From Methanobacteriota archaeon (GTDB lineage Archaea > Thermoplasmatota > Thermoplasmata > SG8-5 > DAIRED01): DNA of 64,000 nucleotides. The position numbers were made by a program, and so were the translations under genes. The notes beneath the pieces are model-generated. The model did no database searches and had not been told where the DNA came from. It saw nothing but the letters and a program-made list of their open reading frames with translations. The stretch is taken from assembly GCA_043799545.1 (NCBI GenBank), contig JAZDNO010000005.1:64001-128000 (forward strand). The letters run 5' to 3'. This document shows, one piece after another, positions 27,881 to 52,983 of the stretch (the stretch's first letter is position 1; each line of letters begins with the position of its first letter).

Positions 27881-28150
27881 ATGGGCGACGTGTTGATATT
27901 CTTCCAGGCGGCGCCAGAGGGACTGGAGACTGACCTGGGCAAGATGCGCGCCGGCCTCGAAGCCGTTGCCAAAAAGCACGGCAGGCTCCCAGGTCCAATC
28001 GAGCAGAAGCCGCTGGCATTCGGCCTCGAGGCGCTGATAGTCAAGGTCATCATCCCCGACAAGGCGGGCCTCATGGACAAGCTGGAGGCGGAGCTGAGGG
28101 CGGTCGAGGGCGTCAGCAACGTAGAGACGCTGGATATGAGCCTGATTTGA
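27881..28150 (+). CDS. ef1b: translation elongation factor 1-beta
   Basis: MGDV, PLAFGLEAL, VEGVSNVETL. Confidence 0.9.
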   Translation: MGDVLIFFQAAPEGLETDLGKMRAGLEAVAKKHGRLPGPIEQKPLAFGLEALIVKVIIPDKAGLMDKLEAELRAVEGVSNVETLDMSLI

Positions 28151-28282
28151 GGCTATTCAAAGAGTCACGTTAATTATAAAATAGGTATCCGTCAGACAAG
28201 AAATATTGGACGATTTTGATAGCTAACTGGTTGGACGCGTCTCTCGGCGTTTGTTAATTGTTAGTTCTGTCAGATTGGCTCG

Positions 28283-28645
28283 CTATTTTGAATTCATTCT
28301 CTCAATTAAATCCGTTTTTGTATATTTAGTGGTTATATTATTATATGAACGTTTTCGTACTTCTGCAGCATGTACAAATACTGCGCGCTGAAGCAATTCG
28401 ACGTAGGCACTTCTTTTCAATCGATATAGCTTTATTCTTCCTTTCCCAACAGGCCTAGATTCAACGATTATTGCAACTCGCTCTAGATATAAAAGAGAAT
28501 CTCTAATGGCTGGAAGTGATCGATCCAATGCTTCAGCAATTTCACTCACGACGTAATCGAATCTAGGATGCGCCAAAAGAAAATCAAATACTTCTATATC
28601 GAGTTTGGATCGAAACATATCTTCAATCATGTTTCTCTCCTCCAA
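28283..28645 (-). CDS. winged-helix DNA-binding protein (low-GC island)
   Basis: EVFDFLLAHP..DYVVSEIAEALDRSLPAIRDSLLYLE...GRIKLYRL; GGAG RBS. Confidence 0.7.
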   Translation of the reverse strand: MEERNMIEDMFRSKLDIEVFDFLLAHPRFDYVVSEIAEALDRSLPAIRDSLLYLERVAIIVESRPVGKGRIKLYRLKRSAYVELLQRAVFVHAAEVRKRSYNNITTKYTKTDLIERMNSK

Positions 28646-29822
28646 TTAAATTGTATGTTTTGCATATAATAATACAAATTTTTCTATGCCCTGATATAAT
28701 AAATGTTAGTGATATGAGTAACGCATAATTGTTTAATTTATTATATAAAGAATCTAACTTATTTGTATTATAAAAAATAGATAAATTTCTATCGACACTT
28801 TTATAAAAATAACAATAAAACTCATTTTCCACATCGCATTTTACAATGAAGCCCAACCTTGAAATCTTATTATTATCATTAAGTTGTAAAAGGCAAAGTA
28901 ATAAGATTGCCAGTTGTAAATACTGGTGAAGATCATTTTTGTTATTTATTGCGATGGTAAGATTCGTTGATGCACTCATTCTATTGAAGACATCAAGTGC
29001 GTTCGTGTTCTTAGAGGCATCAACTTCGAAAGGGAGTATTAAGATTCCAATTGTTGAAATTCCCATTGATTTTGCAACTTCAGTTACATATGGGGCGGCA
29101 CCAGAGCCAACTCCTCTGCTGAGATCTGCGAGGACGATGGTTTTGTCGGCGCCTTCTAGCACGTCATGGATCTCTTTATCACACCTGGCAGAGCACGCCT
29201 CTCCAATCTCGGGGTAGGTATCGGACTTACCAAACGTCGGGTCCATATCCTTGCAGAAACCCAGTCCCTTGGCCCGGTGGAGGTTCTCGTTGTCCATGGC
29301 GATGGTCAGGTTAGTCGAGCCCTTCATTCTTTTGAGATACTCCATGGCGGCCGCGCGCCTCGGCGCCTCGGCCGCGAACGGCAGGACGACTATGTCGAAG
29401 GTGAAAATCCCCATGGACTTCGCCACGTCCGCAACGTAAGGCGCGGCGCCGGAGCCGACACCTCCTCCGAGGCCGGCCACGACAATGGCCATGTCCGCCC
29501 CGTTGAGGGCCTTGCGGATTTCCGCGTCGCATCTGGCCGTGCACGCCTCCCCCACCCCGGGATAGACCGCCGATTTGCCGAAGGTGCGGTCTCTGCCGAC
29601 CTGCACGACTTTGCCCGATTTGGCTTTCGTCAGGCTTGCCCAATCCGAGTTGAGGTAAGTTGCGGTGATGTTTGGCAGAGCGCTGGTGATATGTTTGTCA
29701 GGTTTGTAGCCTGCGTCGCAGCAGGCGATTATTCGCAAGCCGTGGTTCCAGGTCAGCTCTCGTTTACACTCATCGCGCTCTCTGGACATCACGTCTGATT
29801 CGCAGATTATGGCTGGTGTCAT
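28623..29822 (-). CDS. degenerate FtsZ/tubulin-like protein with tandemly duplicated GTPase core
   Basis: Tubulin-signature-like VAGLGGGVGSGAAPYV plus a second copy LADLSRGVGSGAAPYV. GGAGG RBS before ATG 29822. No T1 GGG loop and no recognisable C-terminal (T7) domain. Confidence 0.75.
   Translation of the reverse strand: MTPAIICESDVMSRERDECKRELTWNHGLRIIACCDAGYKPDKHITSALPNITATYLNSDWASLTKAKSGKVVQVGRDRTFGKSAVYPGVGEACTARCDAEIRKALNGADMAIVVAGLGGGVGSGAAPYVADVAKSMGIFTFDIVVLPFAAEAPRRAAAMEYLKRMKGSTNLTIAMDNENLHRAKGLGFCKDMDPTFGKSDTYPEIGEACSARCDKEIHDVLEGADKTIVLADLSRGVGSGAAPYVTEVAKSMGISTIGILILPFEVDASKNTNALDVFNRMSASTNLTIAINNKNDLHQYLQLAILLLCLLQLNDNNKISRLGFIVKCDVENEFYCYFYKSVDRNLSIFYNTNKLDSLYNKLNNYALLISLTFIISGHRKICIIICKTYNLIGGEKHD
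28926..29585 (-). repeat. internal tandem duplication of about 103 codons (29277-29585 and 28926-29237)
   Basis: TFGKS...NLTIA..N.N.LH occurs twice; about 60% aa identity by manual alignment. Confidence 0.9.
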
Positions 29823-29956
29823 CTTCTTTCCTCCACTTTCGCTAGCTCTTTGCGACGTGCTGTCGTCGTGCATCCCATCCTTCCGCCCGGCTGGCATGGC
29901 TTACCCCGCCTGCTCGCGAGAGCCGGGCGACCGAGAGTCTAAACATCGTTGAGGTC

Positions 29957-30349
29957 TCATCTAGAGGCTATCAACTGCTTGTTCTCGGTTACACTGAGGG
30001 CTACTTCCTGTCCCGAGGACCGCGCCATGACCCTGAACCGCTCCTCTAGCCGCTTGACCTGGTCGGCCTCGAAGAAGATGTCAATCATTCGCCTGAGAGC
30101 CTTCTCCCTGCCCGAAAACCATCCGTTCTTCACGATGCTATCGAGGTAGTTTATCTCGGCCGGAGACAACTCAACGCAGATTGGCACGTCCTGACCCGGC
30201 GACGGTTCCTCCATCGCTTGGTCCAGGGCGATTCTGACCAGCTCGGACCTCGTGAGCCCGAGCCTCTTGGCCCTCTCCGTCACGCTGTTCACGTACTCGG
30301 GAGAGAGTCGTATGGTCATTCGCTCGTTTACTTTTTCCGCCTGATCCAT
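29957..30349 (-). CDS. ribbon-helix-helix (CopG/CdrS-like) regulator, probably tandem RHH
   Basis: ERMTIRLSPEYVNSV...LGLTRSELVRIAL, then a second ICVELS...GWFSGREKALRRMI unit; directly upstream of the FtsZ-like gene. Confidence 0.75.
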   Translation of the reverse strand: MDQAEKVNERMTIRLSPEYVNSVTERAKRLGLTRSELVRIALDQAMEEPSPGQDVPICVELSPAEINYLDSIVKNGWFSGREKALRRMIDIFFEADQVKRLEERFRVMARSSGQEVALSVTENKQLIASR

Positions 30350-30378
30350 TGTTCACCCTTTGCGTCGGTTATTCATCA

Positions 30379-30471
30379 TAGGACGCTGTAGGACATATAT
30401 ATCCTTCTTAATATAATATGTTTTCGCTTAAATTTATATATTTACCACTTTCAATTTTTAGGTGTAGGACA
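30379..30471. promoter_or_regulatory. TAGGAC direct repeats upstream of the RHH gene
   Basis: TAGGAC at 30379 and 30389 (10-bp spacing); TGTAGGACA at 30387 and 30463; flank AT-rich TATA-like tracts. Confidence 0.45.
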
Positions 30472-30670
30472 GAAATAATTACTAATATTATATAATATTT
30501 TAGAAAATTATATATATGAATTTACAGAAGATAACTTTATATAGCGATATAATCATAATAGTCACAATGAAAAATAGGCTTGTTGTTAGAGTGCATCCCA
30601 TCCTTTGTGCTGGGGCAAAGAATCCTCTCATCATGTTACTTACATTCACCATCTCCTGGGGAGGGTTATT

Positions 30671-30994
30671 ATGAAGAAAAAAGGGGCGATTTTGACCGAT
30701 TTTGATTTAATGTGTGCAATTATATACCTATTATGTATGTATAACACCCCTACAAGTGAAACCGAGATTCTCATGGGATCTCCACTTTCAATAAGGCTGC
30801 GTGTAAAAAAGCTTCTGTGTCTCCATTCGCAGGGCAATATTCCAATATTTCGCAAGGAACGCCGAAATGGTGTTTGGTATTATTGGATAAATCCAGAGGT
30901 TTATTCCGCTTGTATAGATTTACTGGCAGAAGAGAACTTTATTAAATTTGAGGATGCGTGTAAAATATTACAAAGGAAGAAGCCAGTAAAATAA
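30671..30994 (+). CDS. hypothetical protein, possible winged helix (low GC)
   Basis: GGAGGG RBS before ATG 30671; helix-turn-helix followed by a beta-wing FRKERRNGVWYYWIN. Confidence 0.55.
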   Translation: MKKKGAILTDFDLMCAIIYLLCMYNTPTSETEILMGSPLSIRLRVKKLLCLHSQGNIPIFRKERRNGVWYYWINPEVYSACIDLLAEENFIKFEDACKILQRKKPVK

Positions 30995-31022
30995 ATCTAT
31001 GATTATTTAATACACAAACCTA

Positions 31023-31158
31023 GCCCTAATTCCCCGACCTTCAGGTTGGGGATGTAGGGCGGGTAAGCATCGGCTAACCCGGAGCATCTTTTTAGCCATA
31101 CAAGGGTGTACCGCTTTACCAAACACGGGAGGAAACCATGTTCGAAACCTCCGTGTTT
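31023..31158. mobile_element. IS200/IS605-like terminal hairpin and adjacent stem-loops (non-autonomous remnant)
   Basis: GCCCTA-ATTCCCCGACCTTCAGGTTGGGGATG-TAGGGC resembles the CCCCRNCCTTCAGGNYGGGG end hairpins of this family; further stems at 31061-31080 and 31121-31158; no transposase present. Confidence 0.45.
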
Positions 31159-31246
31159 CTCATTCCTCACGGACGGGGGTACCCCTCTCGGGCGACCATG
31201 GCGCGTTTTTCGATAGTTTAATTACCCCCAATGGGTTGAGCAAATC

Positions 31247-31573
31247 ATGGCCAAGAGCCACAAGTTCGACCGCATGAAGCGCCAGCGCCAAGAAATCGCC
31301 GCCTCGCGCATCGAAACCCTGATGTCCCTGGCCGACGACCGGGGAAAGTCGCACGACCTCAAGTACGCTTCAAGGTACGTCACGCTCGCAAGGTCGATAG
31401 GGATGCGCTACAACGTGCGGCTTCGGTCTGCCGAGAAGCTGAAGGTCTGCAAGGGCTGCGGGGCATATCTGCTGCCGGGGATAACCCTGAGGGTTCGCAC
31501 GGGCAGGAAAACCTTAGTGAGGACTTGCCTCGAATGCGGCCTCGTCAGAAGGATGCCGCTGGAGAAAAGGTGA
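31247..31573 (+). CDS. rnp4: ribonuclease P protein component 4 (Rpp21)
   Basis: IAASRIETL, RYVTLARSIGMRY, CKGC and CLECG..RR Zn motifs. Confidence 0.92.
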   Translation: MAKSHKFDRMKRQRQEIAASRIETLMSLADDRGKSHDLKYASRYVTLARSIGMRYNVRLRSAEKLKVCKGCGAYLLPGITLRVRTGRKTLVRTCLECGLVRRMPLEKR

Positions 31574-31577
31574 AACC

Positions 31578-31826
31578 ATGGATTCGAAAACCCGCGCCAT
31601 GTTCAAGGGAAAGGCTCAGTCGCTGAAGGTCACGCTCCGCGCCGGAAAGGCAGGATTGACGGAGACGCTGGCAAAGGAGCTGGACTACCAGCTAAAGGAG
31701 AACAAGCTCGTGAAAGCTAGGATACTGAAAGGCGATGTCGAGGACATAGCCCGAAAGCTCGCGGAGGCCGCGAGGGCTGAGCTGGTCGAGGTCCGCGGAA
31801 AGACCGCGGTTTTCTGGAGAAAGTAG
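31578..31826 (+). CDS. YhbY/CRM-domain RNA-binding protein
   Basis: GKAGLT, QLKENKLVKARIL, VEVRGKTAVFW. Confidence 0.88.
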   Translation: MDSKTRAMFKGKAQSLKVTLRAGKAGLTETLAKELDYQLKENKLVKARILKGDVEDIARKLAEAARAELVEVRGKTAVFWRK

Positions 31827-31919
31827 CCCTCGATTGCGCAAAGGTTAAGTCCGCGGTCGCGCATACGAGCGCCGGGATTGCACTCGCTTAGAAGCGGCGC
31901 TTTCATTCGGGGGTAGCTG

Positions 31920-34900
31920 ATGGGTTCGGGGGACGCCTCTCTCGCGATTCGCTCTTATTTCGAGGGCATCGAGAGTGAGCTGGACCGGGCATACGCGGCA
32001 GCGCGGGCGGCGAGGTCGAGGGGCTTCGACCCGGCGCCGGACGTGGAGGTCAAGCGCACGCGCGACATGGCCGACAGGGTCGAGAGGCTGCTGGAGGTCG
32101 AGGGCGTCGCCAGGGAGATACGCGAGCTCGCCGGGAAGATGAACCGCGAGGAGCTGTCGATTGAGATTGCCAAGCGCACGGCGCGGATGGGAGGCTTCGA
32201 GGTCGAGGACGCGCTGGAGAAGAGCGTCCGGGTCGGGCTGGCGATACTCACCGAGGGGATTCTCGTCGCGCCGATAGAGGGGATTGCCAAGGTCAGGATT
32301 CGCCACGAATCGGACGGCTCGAACTATGTGGCAGTCTATTTCGCCGGCCCGATTCGCTCGGCGGGAGGGACCGGGCAGGCGATGAGCGTGCTGCTGGCGG
32401 ACATCGTGCGAAGGGAGCTGCGAATCGGGGCATACAAAGCCACCCAGAGCGAGATTGAGAGGTGGAAGGAGGAGATACCGCTTTACAAGCAAGCCCAGCA
32501 CCTTCAATACTCCCCGACGAACGATGAGATAGACCTCATCATAGGGAACTGCCCGATTTGCATCGACGGGGAGGGGACCGAAGACGTCGAAATCTCCGGT
32601 TTCCGCGACCTCCCCCGAATTGAGACCAACAGGGTCAGGGGGGGCGCGTGCCTCATCATCGCCGAGGGCCTTTCACAGAAGGCGGCGAAGATACAGAAGC
32701 ACGTGAAGAAGCTCAAAATCGACGGCTGGGAGTTCATAGACCATCTGCTGAAAAAGAAGGGCGGCACGGATTCCGAGAGCTCCGAATACAAGCCGAGCTG
32801 GAAGTACATGAAGGACCTCGTGGCCGGCAGGCCGGTGCTGAGCCACCCGAGCGCGGTCGGCGGCTTCAGGCTCAGGTACGGCAAGTCGCGCACGAACGGG
32901 CTGGCTGGTCTCTCGATGCACCCGGCTCTGATGCCATTGCTCGGCGACATCCTTGCAATCGGCACCCAGATAAAGATCGAGCGCCCGGGCAAGGCCGGGA
33001 TAGTCACCCCCTGCGACGAGCTCGAACCGCCGATTGTCCTGCTCAAGAACGGCTCGCTGGTCGAAGTCGCGACGGTCGAGGACGCGAAGCGCCTGTATTC
33101 CCAGGTCGACAAGATACTGGACATAGGCGAAATCCTGGTGCCGTTCGGCGAATTCCTGGAGAACAACCAGCCCCTCGCGGCGGGGGCGTTCGACGTAAAC
33201 TGGTACGAGGCCCTGTGGGTCGCTGGCGGCGGGAAAGTTCCGGCAAACATCGGAGACCCGACGTTCGAGGAGGCGCTGGCATGGTCTAAGGAGCGCAGCC
33301 TGCCCTTGCACCCGAACTTCAACCTTTTCTGGCACGACCTCCGCTCCGAAGACATAGTCAAACTCTCCGAGCTGGTCGAAAAGACCGGTATTTTTGAGGG
33401 CAGGTCTCTCAAGGTTTCGCGCACCGCCGAGACGAAAGCCCTGCTGGAGGCGCTTTGCGTCCTCCACGAGGTGAGGGGGAACGAGATAATCGTCGGGAGG
33501 CATTCTGCGGCTCTGGCATACTGTCTGGGGCTCGATGTCACAAAAGATGGAAAGCTGCGGCGGCGCGCTCAGGCTAAGGTTGGAAAGGACGGGCTGGCGA
33601 CGGTTTCCGCCTTGGCCGGAATCGCGGTGAAGGCGCGCGGCCCGACGCGCATCGGGGCAAGGATGGCCAGGCCCGAGAAGGCGAAGGAGCGGGAGATGAA
33701 AGTCCTCGTGCACGCGCTCTTCCCTGTTGGCGAGGCCGGCGGCTCGCAGAGGCTCTTCAGCGAGGCTTCGAAGGCCATGCGCCCTGTCGACGTCGAGCTG
33801 GAAGAGAGGGGCTGCAAGGGCTGCCACACGATAACGCCGTTGAAGGCCTGCCCCAATTGCGGGGCGCAGACGCGCTCGACGGGGCAGATGCGGAAGATGC
33901 CGTTGGACATCAGGGCGATGTTCGAACCCGCGGCCAAGAGCATGGAGATGCCCCAGGGCACGAAGGTCAAGGGCGTGAAGGGGATGCTGTCGGAATCCAA
34001 GATTCCGGAGCCAATCGAGAAGGGCATCCTCAGGGCGAAGCACGGGCTTTCCGTTTTCAAGGACGGCACGATCAGGTTCGACATCACCGACGCGCCGCTC
34101 ACGCATTTCAAGCCCAGGGAGATAGGGCTGACCGTGGAGAGGGCGAGGGAGCTGGGCTACGACACGGACTGCCTGGGGCGGCCGCTGGAGTCCGCCGAGC
34201 AGGCCGTGGAGCTGAGGCCGCAGGACGTTATCATCAGCGAATCCGGGGTCGAGTACCTCCTGCGCATCGCCCAGTTCCTCGACGAGCTTCTCGTCAGATT
34301 CTATAATGTCGAGCCTTACTACAACGTGAAGCGCCCGGAGGACATGATCGGCCAGGCATTGCTAGGCCTGTCCCCGCACACGTCCGGCGGCGTGTGCTGC
34401 AGGCTCATCGGCCACACGGGGGCGAGCGTGTGCTACGCTCACCCGTACTTCCACGCGGCAAAGCGCAGGAACTGCGACGGCGACGAGGATTGCGTGATGC
34501 TCCTCATGGACGCCCTCTTGAATTTCTCTTTCGCGTACCTGCCGGTGAGCCGCGGCGGGCGGATGGACGCGCCCATGATTCTCTCCTCCAGAATCGATCC
34601 GGCCGAGATAGACAAGGAGGCGCTGAACATAGACGCGGTCTCAAGCTATCCAGCCGAGTTCTATGCCATGGCCGAGGCGAGGCGCCCGCCCAAGGACGCG
34701 GAGCGGCTCATAGACAACGCGGGGAAGCGCCTGGGAAGCCTGCTTCAATACGAAGGGCTGATGTTCACCCACGATACGCACGACATCGCAGCCGGGACGA
34801 TGGTCTCGGCATACAAGACGATCGAGGACATGAACGGAAAGATGGAACTGCAGATGAGCCTCGCAAAAAAGCTGGCCGCGGTGGACGAGAACGACGTCGC

Positions 34901-38285: not shown

Positions 38286-39104
38286 TCACGGGCACTTGTC
38301 GATTAGCGCCTTGCGCCGCACGAGGTTACGCGATATCTCCTCTGGAGACTTGAAATTCTGCTCCGCCTCGGCCAGCAGGCGCACAGCTTCGTGGAGCCCC
38401 GCCTTCGTGGGGTTCGAGATGTCGAGCCCTGCCTTGGAGAACTGAGTCCTCACCATCGCCATCGCGAGCTCCGGGTCGCCGAACGATTCCGTGAAGTCGA
38501 TTATCATCATGTCGGCCACGTCCGTCAGGTTGTGCGCTTCCTTCTTCGCGACGGCTTCCGAGCCCTTTGGCATGGCGTCCAAGGATGCAGCCATCTCCGC
38601 GATGTTGGAGAAAAGCCCCTCAACGTTCTCGCCGGTCTTCGCGCTTGAAAGGTAGTGCTGCGCGTGCATGGTGCCAGCAAGGCGGTTTATCTCCTCGTCT
38701 GAAACCTGGCGCTCGCCGAGAAGGTCCACCTTGTTCCCGACGAGGACCGAGGGCACGTTCCCCGCGACCTTCGCAAGTTCGGGGCGCCAGTATTTCTCGA
38801 TGCTGGCGAGCGTTTCCTTCCTTGTCAGGTCGAAGACGAAAATCGCTCCCTGGGTTCCGAGATAGCTCTTCGACTGGGTTCCGGTGTACCCCTGCTGGCC
38901 AAGGATGTCCCATATCATCATCGACATCGAGATTTGGCCTTTTGACCCCTTGACCACGGTCTCCTTCTTCGTTATTTTCGTCCCTATGGTCGTGATGTAG
39001 CTGTCGTCGAACGAGTCCAGCACGAAACGCCTTATGAGGCTTGTCTTGCCTACTGCGCTGTCGCCGAGCAGCACGATCTTCCTCTTCAGGTCAGGTTGTC
39101 CCAT
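38286..39104 (-). CDS. Rab/Ras-like small GTPase with C-terminal helical domain
   Basis: G1 GDSAVGKT, G2 YITTIG, G3 WDILGQ, G4 NKVD, G5 SAKTG, plus a tail of about 85 aa shared with 50632..51453. Confidence 0.9.
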   Translation of the reverse strand: MGQPDLKRKIVLLGDSAVGKTSLIRRFVLDSFDDSYITTIGTKITKKETVVKGSKGQISMSMMIWDILGQQGYTGTQSKSYLGTQGAIFVFDLTRKETLASIEKYWRPELAKVAGNVPSVLVGNKVDLLGERQVSDEEINRLAGTMHAQHYLSSAKTGENVEGLFSNIAEMAASLDAMPKGSEAVAKKEAHNLTDVADMMIIDFTESFGDPELAMAMVRTQFSKAGLDISNPTKAGLHEAVRLLAEAEQNFKSPEEISRNLVRRKALIDKCP

Positions 39105-50573: not shown

Positions 50574-50631
50574 TGATTCTCTCATGCGGAAAGAATATTA
50601 AAGAGCGAGACGTTATCTTGAACACAAGGAA

Positions 50632-51453
50632 TTGGCCATGGAATTGAAGCGGATAAAGCGCAAGGCCCTTCTTCTCGGGGACGGGGCCGTTGGGAAGACC
50701 AGCCTAATTCGCAAGTTCGTCACTGACAAGTTCGATGACAAGTACATCACCACCATCGGCACGAAGATAACCAAGAAGGAGATGGCCTTCAAGGAGCTGA
50801 ACGTTGAGCTGACTCTGATGATGTGGGACGTTCTAGGCCAGAAAGGGTACACTTCGATCCAGTCATCCAGCTACCGCGGGGCGGAGGGGGCGATAATGGT
50901 GTGCGACCTGACACGCGCTGAGACCTTGCGCAGCCTGGAAGAGTACTGGATGCCGGAACTCGCGAAGGTCGTCGGCGACGTTCCGCTGGTATTCGTGGGG
51001 AACAAGGTCGACCTAATCGAGCAGAGGCAGGTCGAGGAGGACGAACTGGCTGCCTTCGCTGGACGCCATTCGGCACCGTTTTACATGAGCAGCGCCCGCA
51101 CGGGCGAACGCGTCGAGGACCTCTTCAAAAAGCTCGGCGAACTTGTTCTAGCTGACAGGATGGATGTGAGCGTCGAGGGTGGAGACATAAAGGAAATAAA
51201 GACAATTGTGGACGCCACGGATTTCGTGATAATGGATTTCTGCAAGTCTTACGCCGACCAGGAGACAGCCATGGCCATCGTCCGAACCCAGTTCGCGAAG
51301 GCGGAACTGGACGTCAAGGCTCCGACCAGGCAGGGCTTGCTGAAGGCTATCGATTTGCTGGCGGAAGCGGAAAAAGGGTTCAAGGACGAGCCCGCCATTT
51401 TTCAGAACCGCATGCGCCGCAGACAGACCGTAGACCACGCAGGGGGCCATTGA
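50632..51453 (+). CDS. Rab/Ras-like small GTPase with C-terminal helical domain
   Basis: GDGAVGKT, YITTIG, WDVLGQ, SYRGAEGA, NKVD, SARTG, plus a tail paralogous to 38286..39104. Confidence 0.9.
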   Translation: MAMELKRIKRKALLLGDGAVGKTSLIRKFVTDKFDDKYITTIGTKITKKEMAFKELNVELTLMMWDVLGQKGYTSIQSSSYRGAEGAIMVCDLTRAETLRSLEEYWMPELAKVVGDVPLVFVGNKVDLIEQRQVEEDELAAFAGRHSAPFYMSSARTGERVEDLFKKLGELVLADRMDVSVEGGDIKEIKTIVDATDFVIMDFCKSYADQETAMAIVRTQFAKAELDVKAPTRQGLLKAIDLLAEAEKGFKDEPAIFQNRMRRRQTVDHAGGH

Positions 51454-51996
51454 ATGACAGGCAGGAAGATAATGAAGAAGATTTGCCTTCTGGGCGACGG
51501 CGCCGTCGGGAAGACCACGCTCATCAAGAAGTTCGTGTACGACAAGTTCGACGACAAATACATCATGACCTTCGGGACAAAGGTGACGAAGAAGGGCGTG
51601 TGTCTGACCACCGGCGGTGTCGATTTCGACCTCACCATGATGATTTGGGACATCCTCGGCCAGCGCGTTCACGATGCCCTCCACGCGACATATTACCAGG
51701 GCGCCGCTGGGGCGCTGCTGGTCTGCGACGTGACGCGCCGCGAGACCCTGGCAGGGCTTGAGGAGTGGGCCCGTGTGTTCAGGGGCGTCTGCCCCGAGGC
51801 GCCGATAATATTCCTCGGGAACAAGTCCGACCTGAAGGAGCAGATCCAGGTGACCGAGGCGGACCTGGGCGCGCTGGCGTCCAAATATGGCACAATACAT
51901 TTCATGACGAGCGCAAAGACGGGCGACCACGTCGAGGAGTCGTTCCTGCGGCTCGGCAACCTGATTGCCGAGAGCATGCTCCGAAGGGAGGTGTAG
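51454..51996 (+). CDS. Rab/Ras-like small GTPase (single domain)
   Basis: GDGAVGKT, YIMTFG, WDILGQ, YYQGAAGA, NKSD, SAKTG; starts immediately after the previous stop. Confidence 0.9.
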   Translation: MTGRKIMKKICLLGDGAVGKTTLIKKFVYDKFDDKYIMTFGTKVTKKGVCLTTGGVDFDLTMMIWDILGQRVHDALHATYYQGAAGALLVCDVTRRETLAGLEEWARVFRGVCPEAPIIFLGNKSDLKEQIQVTEADLGALASKYGTIHFMTSAKTGDHVEESFLRLGNLIAESMLRREV

Positions 51997-52026
51997 GAGC
52001 TGCCGGACCAGATAAGCTTCTTCGTT

Positions 52027-52983
52027 ATGTCCGGCGAGGCGCTCAAGAGCCTCGGGGACGAGCTGCAGATATTGGCGGGCGAAACGTCCGCAAGGGAGAC
52101 TATCGAACGGTACGGATTCAGGTGCGGGGAGGGCCTGGCGCAGAAGCTCGGCCTTGGCATAGTGAACTCGGTCGAACTCCGAGACCTCATTCCTGACCTG
52201 CTGATCGAGACTGGCCTGGGTCGGTCGCGCGCCGTGGACGTTTCAGAAGACAGGGTCGTCATAGATTTCGAGGACTCGGTCGAGGCCGGGGCGGTGGGAA
52301 AAGTAGCGGTGCCCTCATGCAGGTTCACCAGCGGATACCTTTCAGGGCTGCTGTCCTCGTTGTTAGACAGGCGCTTCGAAGGCACGGAGGAGACTTGTAT
52401 AGCTGCCGGAGAGTCTTCATGCAGGCACGTTTTCACGCCTTCGAAGGCGGTTTTCAAACCCGCCAACGAGGCCCCCGTAGCGAGCGAATGCAAGTATTGT
52501 TTGAACGAGGCCACCGGGTACCTCGTCAAGGAGGAGACGGGGGAGAAGAGCTACGATGTGTTCACGGAGAATGTCACCCACGGCCACCAGGGGCTCTGCA
52601 TCACGAGGGATTTTCCGACGAAGATAAGGAAGAGGTACGGGCTGGAGAGGACCCCGATAATATGGCTGTCGACGGCCGAGACGACGGAGGCGACGGTCGC
52701 CCCGCAGAACCTTTCCGCGCTCTACTACCAGATAGAGAGTTTCCTGAAGAAGAGCGAAAAAGGAATAGTTCTATTGTCGGGCATGGAATACATGATTTCG
52801 CAGAACTCCTATCAGAGCGTCCTTAAGTTCATACAGCTCCTAAACGAGCTCATAGCGGTGAGGGGCGCAATCCTGCTCGTGTCCCTGAGCCCCCTGACTC
52901 TCGACGAGAAGGACCTCAAGACCCTGGAGAGGGAGCTGGAGGCTTTCGTCCCCAACCAAAAGGTAGTCAACATGATGGAGTGA
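52027..52983 (+). CDS. V4R domain plus DUF835 domain protein
   Basis: V4R: GLGR...PSCRFTSGYLSG...EETCIAAGESSCRHVF. DUF835: YLVKEE, GLCITR, IIWLS, LLSGMEYMI..N, LERELE. Confidence 0.85.
   Translation: MSGEALKSLGDELQILAGETSARETIERYGFRCGEGLAQKLGLGIVNSVELRDLIPDLLIETGLGRSRAVDVSEDRVVIDFEDSVEAGAVGKVAVPSCRFTSGYLSGLLSSLLDRRFEGTEETCIAAGESSCRHVFTPSKAVFKPANEAPVASECKYCLNEATGYLVKEETGEKSYDVFTENVTHGHQGLCITRDFPTKIRKRYGLERTPIIWLSTAETTEATVAPQNLSALYYQIESFLKKSEKGIVLLSGMEYMISQNSYQSVLKFIQLLNELIAVRGAILLVSLSPLTLDEKDLKTLERELEAFVPNQKVVNMME

Follow-up and report, generated by a model that had tools for sequence, protein, structure and literature searches.

A conserved gene cassette of Ras/Rab-like GTPases and a V4R-DUF835 protein in Thermoplasmatota: a candidate archaeal small-GTPase signalling module

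Introduction

Apart from MglA, we know of no prokaryotic small Ras-like GTPase whose partners or functions have been established. In the best-known prokaryotic small-GTPase module, MglA-MglB, a Ras-superfamily GTPase is encoded beside a cognate non-enzymatic partner, an arrangement retained from genome to genome (PMC4316618), as is also the case at the archaeal locus described here. Nevertheless, the G3 aspartate is missing from the MglA family (PMC4316618) but kept, in a DxxGQ motif, by the GTPases of this locus, which are paired with a V4R sensor, either fused to DUF835 or not, instead of a Roadblock GAP/GEF. The Rup GTPases share with those reported here a prokaryotic origin, Ras-like sequences in all of the G motifs and the uncoupling from MglB (PMC4316618). 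The genes of Rup Group 1 are likewise embedded in a conserved signalling neighbourhood of several genes, although the partners there are an OmpA-type and a coiled-coil protein together with either a GGDEF/EAL or a histidine-kinase protein (PMC4316618) and not V4R and DUF835; moreover, this group is bacterial and devoid of the catalytic Gln, while the present GTPases are from Thermoplasmatota and retain it. Rup Group 2 differs in being crenarchaeal and without conserved neighbours (PMC4316618).

The Rab-like GTPases of Asgard archaea offer a further comparison, given that, among solved structures, a Thorarchaeota Rab (PDB 7EZB) came closest to both GTPases studied here. Asgard genomes also encode zinc-binding proteins of the V4R/TRAPPC3 fold, presumed to be ligand binders (Tran et al., 2024; PMC10933270). 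The GTPase genes of Asgard strain MK-D1 generally lie outside the operons carrying RB, longin and TRAPPC3 genes, and hence partners cannot be matched from the genome layout (PMC10933270). In contrast, the pairing described below is fixed by gene adjacency and by domain fusion, and its V4R domain is of the MopR type, not of the TRAPPC3 type.

Results

Organization of the Operon

Positions 50638–52983 of the plus strand of the window (the whole 64,000-nucleotide stretch that was analysed), which comes from an uncultured member of the Thermoplasmatota, were occupied by three closely spaced genes, two encoding Ras-family GTPases (271 and 180 aa) and one encoding a V4R+DUF835 protein (318 aa). The open reading frames, all co-directional, spanned 50632/50638–51453, 51454–51996 and 52027–52983; together with the Pfam matches given below, they bore out the tandem GTPase pair followed by a V4R-DUF835 gene that an initial annotation of this DNA had described. 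A TATA-like element (AAAGAATATTAAAG, 50591–50604, plus strand), read from the sequence in the 64-nt gap 5' of the operon and located about 35–45 nt ahead of the ATG at 50638, is a candidate archaeal promoter. This ATG is most likely the start of the long GTPase gene (50638–51453, plus strand), because it agrees with the 271-aa database gene call and is preceded, approximately 8 nt upstream, by AGGA.

The long and short GTPase genes were joined by TGAATG with no spacer, and the gap between the short GTPase gene (51454–51996, plus strand) and the V4R-DUF835 gene amounted to 3 or 30 nt, depending on the start chosen for the latter. In the relatives, this gene starts with a TTG placed 1–6 nt past the short-GTPase stop and after GGAGGT. 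Since the window carries a CTG (52000) at the position of this TTG, the gene (52000–52983, plus strand) would start either at CTG 52000, yielding 327 aa, or at ATG 52027, yielding 318 aa. The stop codon of the short GTPase is a TAG in frame with the V4R-DUF835 reading frame. Read-through or pyrrolysine decoding of this TAG was rejected, as no PylS above the cut-off was found, TAG terminates 22% of the confident genes and the TTG start of the relatives falls there in other frames. None of the three operon proteins matched the PADLOC defence models and, hence, the operon does not correspond to a known anti-phage defence system.

The Two GTPases

The long GTPase matched the Pfam profiles Ras (3e-39) and Roc (1.5e-26), and the short one did so with values of 1.5e-35 and 2e-27, respectively. 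The scores against Ras (PF00071) were 134.6 and 122.6 bits for a cut-off of 21.6, and both proteins belong to the Ras superfamily by this profile match and by their complete G1–G5 boxes, including a G3 DxxGQ. The G domain of the long GTPase (50662–51156, plus strand) contained G1 GDGAVGKT, G3 WDVLGQ, G4 NKVD and G5 SAR, and intact G4 NK(V/S)D and G5 SA(R/K) motifs were present in both GTPases. All of the motifs quoted initially were recovered, namely GDGAVGKT, WDVLGQ/WDILGQ with the catalytic Gln, NKVD/NKSD, SAR/SAK, YRGA/YQGA and CDLT/CDVT.

For the comparisons that follow, alignment A1 comprised orthologues and paralogues of the long GTPase, A4 the short GTPase and A2 the V4R-DUF835 family. 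In the long GTPase, a disordered linker connected the G domain to a helical domain at the C-terminus, and the AF2 model of the full protein had a mean pLDDT of 83. This conserved C-terminal domain of about 85 aa (Cext; 51199–51441, plus strand) had gone unmentioned in the initial annotation and was predicted, when modelled alone with AF2, to consist of four helices (pLDDT 91.7, pTM 0.82). The search of Cext against Pfam gave no matches, and that of its model against the PDB with Foldseek returned nothing at E ≤ 0.001. The best hit by VIA-align (Z 8.1) was among unrelated helical proteins and within the noise for bundles, so that the modelled domain appears to resemble no clear known fold. In the ESM Atlas, Cext was also found on archaeal Ras GTPases of about 270 aa and as stand-alone 79-aa proteins. 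The Roc matches raised the possibility of a Roc-COR (ROCO) protein, which was discarded, as the extension is an 85-residue four-helix bundle with no Pfam match and not a COR domain.

Regarding their family, the best solved relative was the Thorarchaeota Rab 7EZB for both the long-GTPase G domain (1.4e-32) and the short GTPase (1.6e-28), and Rabs led among all 60 best PDB matches of the GTPases, a ranking of similarity and not a phylogeny. Comparison by eye revealed RabF4-like YRGA/YYQGA and a partial RabF5, VCD(L/V)T, whereas the switch I/II stretches differed from RabF (IGTKI/FGTKV and GQKGYTSIQ/GQRVHDALH). The RabF1–F5 consensus used here is the one that Pereira-Leal and Seabra reportedly defined in 2000. 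No cysteine was found near the C-terminus of either GTPase and, consequently, both lack a prenylation motif (CC, CXC or CAAX); by this feature, they are not Rabs in the strict sense, which carry prenylation cysteines. The term "Rab-like" used in the initial annotation therefore holds as to the closest solved structures, 7EZB at the top, but not as to the cysteines of a true Rab. Rab-like proteins outside Asgard archaea, of which that annotation also spoke, are no novelty as such, since Surkont and Pereira-Leal (2016; PMC4915359) had already listed one for Aciduliprofundum and one for a Thermoplasmatales archaeon; for Thermoplasmatales, this earlier record consists of isolated cases only.

Neither GTPase fitted the MglA family: the G3 aspartate was kept, and the Roadblock/MglB profile matched none of the three proteins nor the flanking genes, in agreement with the lack of an MglB/roadblock partner reported initially. 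The short GTPase fits an unclassified Rup, that is, a prokaryotic Ras-like G domain of less than 240 aa uncoupled from MglB, while the long one exceeds the 240-aa limit through its extra domain. By the published definitions, neither of them is a Rup of Group 1 (without Gln) or Group 2 (from Crenarchaeota) (PMC4316618). In a G-domain tree of 64 family members the labels clustered, with an unresolved backbone (31 of 61 inner branches open). As a separate observation, Ras-like GTPases numbered 5–13 per genome, and as many as about 35, in part of this non-Asgard archaeal phylum, an expansion that is not mentioned in the searchable literature.

The tandem arrangement of two paralogous small-GTPase genes recalls Rag/Gtr and by analogy suggests a heterodimeric switch. 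Unlike Rag/Gtr, the long GTPase bears the four-helix bundle and not a C-terminal roadblock domain.

The V4R-DUF835 Protein

The N-terminal half of the third protein (sensor domain at 52027–52476, plus strand) matched V4R (PF02830) at residues 78–137 with an E-value of 6.7e-10 and 39.4 bits, above the Pfam cut-off of 31. The A2 profile matched the sensor domains of MopR (1.7e-5) and PoxR (5.5e-4) over residues 44–194 and 41–191, and a scan of 18 family members detected V4R in 17 and XylR_N in 16 of them. The conserved zinc ligands C98, E121, C124 and C132 aligned with the MopR segment ACW...QETHC...EHC. On these profile matches, the N-terminal half is an XylR_N+V4R ligand-binding sensor of the MopR/PoxR type. 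It shares with the "A" domain of XylR, DmpR, MopR and PoxR the two-Pfam-domain architecture and the Cys-Glu-Cys-Cys zinc site. These bacterial regulators use the sensor to control an AAA+ sigma-54 activator on the same chain; the archaeal sensor is instead joined to a DUF835 domain lacking Walker A and has a separate P-loop GTPase as its partner.

The TRAPP_Bet3 profile (PF04051) matched none of the 18 sensor domains at E ≤ 1 and, by this measure of sequence, the domain is not a member of the Bet3/TRAPP family. The TRAPP argument made initially thus stands as to the homology of V4R and Bet3 at the superfamily level (Podar et al., 2008; PMC2253512) and fails as to the type of the domain, which by sequence is XylR_N+V4R.

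The C-terminal half (52537–52938, plus strand) matched DUF835 (PF05763) at residues 171–304, with an E-value of 5.6e-33 and 114 bits for a cut-off of 33.1. It lacked a Walker A motif, since no GK[ST] was present in the V4R-DUF835 sequence, and contained an invariant Arg in the motif ITRDFP. DUF835 has been stated to be a degenerate KaiC domain, "iKaiC" (PMC5847659). The hhalign comparison of DUF835 with a single KaiC, or with the 40-row KaiC alignment from this genome, was collinear and non-significant (E 0.075). In Atlas clusters, DUF835 was located C-terminal to REC, PAS, 7TM and HTH domains, and the same position behind input domains has been described in archaeal proteins (PMC5847659). Archaeal REC-DUF835 response regulators share this arrangement, and their DUF835 domain is also found in Thermoplasmata (Galperin et al., 2018, citing Makarova et al., 2017; PMC5847659), although at the loci studied here the place of REC is taken by a V4R sensor, a Ras-like GTPase or both. 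A coupling between GTPases and DUF835 is not mentioned in the searchable literature, which excludes Makarova, Galperin and Koonin (2017; mBio, on KaiC hubs).

About 30 genes of the KaiC superfamily were present in the genome of the window; several adjoined DUF835 genes, and one immediately preceded a paralogous pair of short and long GTPase genes. Approximately 12 of the 15 DUF835 proteins of this genome had no Ras-like GTPase neighbour, indicating that DUF835 is not reserved for pairing with GTPases.

Conservation of the Gene Adjacency

At some 50 loci, spread over many families of Thermoplasmatota, a GTPase gene adjoined a V4R(-DUF835) gene in spite of inverted orders and altered flanks; these adjacency counts, like those of co-occurrence, overstate the statistical weight, since related genomes are not independent. 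Among the genomes of the same order with an orthologue, the full long-short-V4R-DUF835 triad was present in identical order in 16 of 18, and in the remaining two it was interrupted by contig ends. A Ras-family gene was located directly upstream of the distant family members (36–46% identity) in all three cases. At all of the 20 loci fetched from other families or classes, a co-directional GTPase gene abutted the V4R-DUF835 gene, and this abutment survived an inverted gene order or an additional V4R-only gene. The simplest arrangement, a sole GTPase gene followed by a V4R-only gene, was found in 3/3 genomes of family f44 (1.0–1.4 Mb, with GC contents of 37% and 64%), and stand-alone V4R-sensor representatives from a library of 1.84 billion proteins had a Ras gene directly upstream in 4/4.

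The flanking genes were conserved within the genus only. This indicates that the cassette moves as a unit and also means that its context gives no clue to the process regulated. In the genome of the window, all three complete V4R-sensor genes adjoined GTPase genes. Two second-copy V4R-DUF835 genes (L088 and L089) had no GTPase gene within 3 kb, and a closed 5.2-Mb genome contained three V4R-sensor genes, one of them with no adjoining GTPase gene.

Co-occurrence and Natural Fusions

In a sample of 401 genomes of the phylum, full-length V4R-DUF835 was found in 30, all of which (30/30) also contained the GTPase; the GTPase alone was present in 19 and neither protein in 352. When a genome had exactly one GTPase match, its gene adjoined V4R-DUF835 in every case (13/13), including a closed genome of 1.8 Mb.

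Furthermore, the domains were found joined in single proteins: Ras + DUF835 in one 408-aa open reading frame, GTPase-V4R-DUF835 in P0074 (605 aa) and, as a partial sequence, in P0078, GTPase-Cext-DUF835 in P0077, GTPase-DUF835 in P0080 and P0083, and, in one case, the GTPase and the V4R sensor in one open frame. These fusions are independent support for the module, apart from adjacency. The three genes are functionally coupled, and the claim that they form one module, made initially for this locus, was decisively upheld by the conserved co-location across related genomes, the absence of which would have spoken against it, and was further strengthened by the fusions. The complex prediction for the short GTPase and V4R-DUF835 (alignments A4 and A2) reached 0.11 against a mark of 0.32, which the tool reports as "no answer", and argues neither for nor against the interaction.

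Discussion

The invariant core of the system appears from these sequences to be a Ras/Rab-like GTPase with full catalytic motifs together with a MopR/PoxR-type XylR_N+V4R sensor, usually fused to DUF835, and its conserved adjacency and fusion across the phylum point to an archaeal signalling module not previously described. We consider it probable, with some reservation, that the operon is one dedicated small-GTPase signalling module, conserved across Thermoplasmatota, with V4R as the input, the GTPase as the switch and DUF835 as the output. The role of V4R as sensor input is proposed because its zinc ligands align with those of MopR, and that of DUF835 as output because it is C-terminal behind REC, PAS and 7TM inputs in other archaeal proteins; we infer the direction of the signal flow from the domain order and from the domain combinations that occur. 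According to this mechanism, the zinc-stabilised V4R would bind a small hydrophobic or aromatic ligand, or sense the redox state, and would then touch its cognate GTPase and set its nucleotide state. The GTP-bound GTPase would act on DUF835, which would pass the signal to the large KaiC-type ATPase network of the cell. The long GTPase may be a duplicated second switch, whose private four-helix domain could provide an extra interaction surface.

The opposite assignment, in which V4R-DUF835 is a GEF or GAP and the GTPases are the output, acting on effectors elsewhere in the cell, has a real but clearly smaller chance of being correct. It would fit the minimal systems, which consist of a GTPase and a stand-alone V4R protein only, as expected for a regulator-plus-switch pair, and GTPases with canonical Ras-type catalytic residues are expected to need a GEF or GAP; the invariant Arg of ITRDFP could, speculatively, even serve as an arginine finger. 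Nevertheless, neither V4R nor DUF835 is similar to a known GEF or GAP fold, and in the fusions the GTPase holds the N-terminal place that REC and PAS inputs have in other DUF835 proteins, suggesting that the GTPase controls DUF835 and not the reverse. That the three genes merely share a transcript, for instance as independent regulators of one physiological response, is very improbable: some V4R-DUF835 and V4R genes do lack a GTPase neighbour, but the adjacency outlasts gene-order inversion, flank changes and large differences in GC content, it holds for every single-copy pair, and there are at least five distinct fusion architectures.

We regard as unlikely a proto-TRAPP system, with a V4R that binds the Rab-like GTPase homologously to the Bet3-family TRAPP subunits and a role in membrane remodelling or trafficking. 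The homology of V4R and Bet3 (Podar et al., 2008; PMC2253512), the best scores of the GTPases against Rabs, with that of Thorarchaeota on top, and the V4R-GTPase adjacency, the most constant feature of the module, are all consistent with it. Against this, the sensor is MopR-like XylR_N+V4R, with TRAPP_Bet3 unmatched in the 18 members, the GTPases are devoid of prenylation motifs and of any other anchor to the membrane, and no transmembrane segment was seen in any of the three proteins. The operon also lacks a longin/roadblock subunit, the catalytic core of TRAPP. A broader and equally doubtful idea is that the direct binding and regulation of a Ras/Rab-like GTPase by the V4R fold is ancient, and that the Bet3-TRAPP/Rab pairing descends from a prokaryotic sensor-switch pair of this kind. 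If this were true, the Thermoplasmatota operons and fusions would offer the first prokaryotic model in which a GTPase regulator of the TRAPP kind is tractable.

The dedicated signalling module proposed here is not described in the searchable literature; Makarova et al. (2017), which lies outside it, may mention GTPase neighbours of iKaiC. It would provide prokaryotic GTPases with a new kind of partner, in fixed pairs of which some genomes have exactly one. These fixed pairs, together with the natural single-chain fusions, make binding, nucleotide-exchange and structural experiments directly designable. V4R is, moreover, the fold from which the Bet3 subunits of TRAPP are thought to derive. The module would thus join three archaeal themes that have been handled separately: Ras-like switches, V4R ligand sensors and the DUF835/iKaiC branch of the proposed KaiC hub.

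Organization of the Operon and Gene Starts

Three co-directional ORFs on the forward strand encode a long GTPase (50632/50638-51453, +), a short GTPase (51454-51996, +) and a V4R-DUF835 protein (52027-52983, +). For the long GTPase, ATG 50638 is the probable start, giving 271 aa. Its gene abuts that of the short GTPase in a TGAATG junction, the TATA-like AAAGAATATTAAAG lies within the 64-nt gap 5' of the first gene, and the gene 3' of the operon is convergent. In Pfam searches, above the curated cut-offs, the long and short GTPases matched Ras (3e-39 and 1.5e-35, respectively), with Roc second-best for both, and the third protein matched V4R (6.7e-10, residues 78-137) and DUF835 (5.6e-33, residues 171-304). 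For these three proteins, NCBIfam added just small_GTP, a generic model, and a weak match to MsvR V4R. The GTPase motifs quoted in the initial annotation were all found in the two translated proteins, which contain the P-loop, the switch I threonine, DxxGQ, NKxD and SAK/SAR. These ORF, domain, motif, junction and flanking observations confirmed the operon-like layout of three genes.

In relatives, the V4R-DUF835 gene has a TTG start 1-6 nt past the short GTPase stop, with GGAGGT ahead; the window has CTG at that position (52000) and no further ATG until 52027. The V4R-DUF835 ORF and the TAG stop of the short GTPase share a reading frame (window 51994-52029), and the 30-nt spacer between them encodes ELPDQISFFV, matching an N-terminal extension conserved among relatives. 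Since the spacer encodes this extension and CTG replaces TTG, the protein may start at a near-cognate codon or be made without the conserved first strand.

The long GTPase also has a conserved C-terminal domain (Cext), overlooked in the initial annotation, a four-helix bundle (confident model, pLDDT 91.7) that follows a disordered linker. It matched no Pfam family and gave no convincing match in fold searches. Cext was also found on archaeal Ras GTPases of ~270 aa and as stand-alone proteins of ~80-107 aa, one of them encoded beside a cassette of a different genome. The window contains one more long-type Ras-like GTPase with Cext (38286-39104, -; 272 aa), a solo gene flanked by aminotransferase and AdoHcy hydrolase genes and with no V4R or DUF835 neighbor. 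Elsewhere in the window, positions 28001-32000 have a GC content of 0.47-0.50, against ~0.59 in the rest, and may represent a foreign or special region.

Family Assignment of the GTPases

The top solved structure for both GTPases was the Thorarchaeota Rab 7EZB (long, 1.4e-32; short, 1.6e-28), and the best 60 solved-structure matches of each were almost all Rabs, those of the short GTPase also including Ran/GSP1. The proposed kinship with Rabs was upheld to this extent; C-terminal cysteines are absent from both proteins, and the only RabF motifs present are RabF4/5-like. Judged by sequence similarity, both are Rab-like but not Rabs. Both retain the G3 aspartate and, as the initial annotation had noted, lack a Roadblock partner, so that they are not MglA; nor are they ROCO, having no COR domain. 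The two GTPases fit the catch-all definition of Rup but neither of its described groups (PMC4316618).

The V4R-DUF835 Protein

Over its full length, the sensor half of this protein aligns with the phenol-sensing domains of MopR and PoxR, the Cys-Glu-Cys-Cys zinc site corresponding to C98, E121, C124 and C132. When 18 members of the sensor-domain family were scanned, XylR_N was found in 16, V4R in 17 and TRAPP_Bet3 in none. DUF835 has been described as an inactive KaiC, or iKaiC (PMC5847659). A Walker A motif is absent from the domain, and the published relationship was not confirmed by hhalign against KaiC. Elsewhere in archaeal proteins, DUF835 is C-terminal, behind REC, PAS, 7TM or HTH modules (also PMC5847659). 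All close relatives of the whole protein belonged to MAGs of Thermoplasmatota or Thermoplasmata, where their annotation goes no further than "DUF835 domain-containing protein" or "predicted hydrocarbon binding protein".

Conservation of the Neighborhood

Conserved co-location, by which the initial annotation had proposed to check the module, was found both within and beyond the order. An orthologous V4R-DUF835 gene (56-71% identity) was present in 18 of 21 same-order genomes, 16 of which had the full triad in the same order (long, short, V4R-DUF835), the other two being cut by contig ends; a co-directional GTPase gene abutted the V4R-DUF835 gene in all 20 loci fetched from other families or classes, and since these counts draw on related genomes and not on independent samples, no P-value is given. 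Down to 36% identity, family members were still immediately preceded by a Ras gene, and one has both GTPases. Gene order was inverted in two families (f56 and f63), and a V4R-only gene was added in several lineages; the arrangement in family f28 is GTPase / V4R-DUF835 / GTPase / V4R. In small genomes of family f44, at 37% and 64% GC, a stand-alone V4R gene comes after the sole GTPase, and stand-alone V4R-sensor representatives obtained by searching 1.84 billion proteins with a profile had a Ras gene immediately upstream (4/4). Flanking genes were common to cassettes within the genus only; hence, the cassette itself is the conserved unit.

The GTPase family was present in just 49 of 401 sampled genomes of the phylum. 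All 30 genomes with a full-length V4R-DUF835 protein also had a GTPase, 19 had a GTPase only and 352 had neither. Where a genome had exactly one GTPase match, this gene neighbored the V4R-DUF835 gene (13/13), and in one such closed genome of 1.8 Mb the two are 15 bp apart. The three complete V4R-sensor genes of the window's own genome all lie beside GTPase genes: in the operon (50638-52983, +), in a paralogous cassette of long GTPase, short GTPase and a V4R-only protein of 153 aa (contig 28, 18574-20336; L054), and in a GTPase and V4R-like-DUF835 pair on contig 6. The exceptions were two second-copy V4R-DUF835 genes without a GTPase within 3 kb, and one of the three V4R genes of a closed 5.2-Mb genome, which had no adjacent GTPase. 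Additionally, L054 lies just upstream of a gene whose 1588-aa surface-type product has DUF11/Ig-like domains, and in one relative a GTPase / V4R-DUF835 / V4R cassette (L061:6073-9051) is followed by DUF8166 and then by a DUF87 (HerA-like ATPase) gene.

Gene Fusions and Family Expansion

The same domains were also found fused. In a closed genome of 3.6 Mb, a single ORF of 408 aa comprises Ras and DUF835, and a GTPase is joined to a V4R sensor in one open frame at one locus. Among database proteins, P0074 (605 aa) and P0078 (partial) are GTPase-V4R-DUF835, P0077 is GTPase-Cext-DUF835, and P0080 and P0083 are GTPase-DUF835. The three kinds of gene form a conserved unit whose domains can work within a single polypeptide.

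The window's genome (2.06 Mb) encodes ten Ras-family paralogues, five of the long type, ~15 DUF835 proteins and ~30 KaiC-superfamily genes, several of which adjoin DUF835 genes (e.g., C2 48975-50139, C11 6187-9597 and C18 60401-62145). Same-order genomes have 5-13 GTPases of this family each, one 3.7-Mb relative has 34, and the closed 5.2-Mb genome G436 (CP070751.1, L103) has 35, some of them in groups of 3-6 near 3.13 Mb and 3.70 Mb. At each of two loci, L090 (G034:C9) and L091 (G037:C53), four Ras-like GTPase genes stand in tandem, and one of the arrays ends in a V4R-only gene. TPR-repeat::Ras-like GTPase fusions of ~340 aa, of the same family, were seen in low-GC Thermoplasmatota (L094:2843-3865, L095:2892-3908 and L096:2737-3765).

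Discussion

The operon is a genuine feature that is conserved throughout the phylum. Chance can hardly explain genes that stay adjacent through rearrangements, a lone GTPase gene that is always paired with V4R-DUF835, and fusions of several architectures; the genes of the operon are very probably functionally coupled. From the combinations found (GTPase with V4R, with DUF835 or with both, and a V4R-DUF835 fusion almost always beside a GTPase), we infer that the GTPase is the hub. To our knowledge, V4R domains are inputs in every characterized case; DUF835 occupies the position of an output domain, and in the fusions the GTPase holds the N-terminal place of REC in REC-DUF835 proteins. In the simplest scheme, V4R would pass a ligand or redox input to the GTPase switch, which would act on DUF835 as a transmitter, plausibly toward KaiC-type ATPases. 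Immediately upstream of a paralogous short and long GTPase pair, which a DUF192 gene follows, is a gene for a KaiC-family ATPase (contig 30 of the window's genome, 72322-74523; L056). This sensor-switch-transmitter reading is favored, with some reserve.

A narrower proposal makes the V4R-DUF835 protein a GEF or GAP of the GTPases, and the initial annotation had argued for it from the kinship of V4R with Bet3 and TRAPP. Structures of Thor-Rab and of a Thor TRAPPC3/V4R protein are available (Tran et al., 2024, PMC10933270). The alignment of the sensor with MopR and PoxR and the lack of TRAPP_Bet3 matches among the 18 members scanned undercut this argument; the TRAPP analogy is so far weak and a GEF or GAP role appears unlikely, the TRAPP-like reading being nonetheless the most interesting of those remaining.

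The nearest concept to the sensor-switch-transmitter module is MglA-MglB, from which the operon differs in the type of GTPase and in the partner. Rup Group 1 also has a conserved neighborhood, but with entirely different partners (PMC4316618). Asgard GTPase genes generally lie outside operons with RB, longin or TRAPPC3 genes (Tran et al., 2024, PMC10933270); the Thermoplasmatota module is the opposite case, its partner genes being adjoining. In the searchable literature, no paper was found combining DUF835 with a GTPase, or treating small GTPases of Thermoplasmatota in the sense of this operon. Since one Rab-like protein each had been listed for a Thermoplasmatales archaeon and for Aciduliprofundum (Surkont and Pereira-Leal, 2016, PMC4915359), the presence of such GTPases in the phylum was already known; their expansion and their partner are new. 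The operon is best viewed as a small-GTPase switch paired with a partner of its own, a ligand-sensor and iKaiC protein not previously linked to GTPases.
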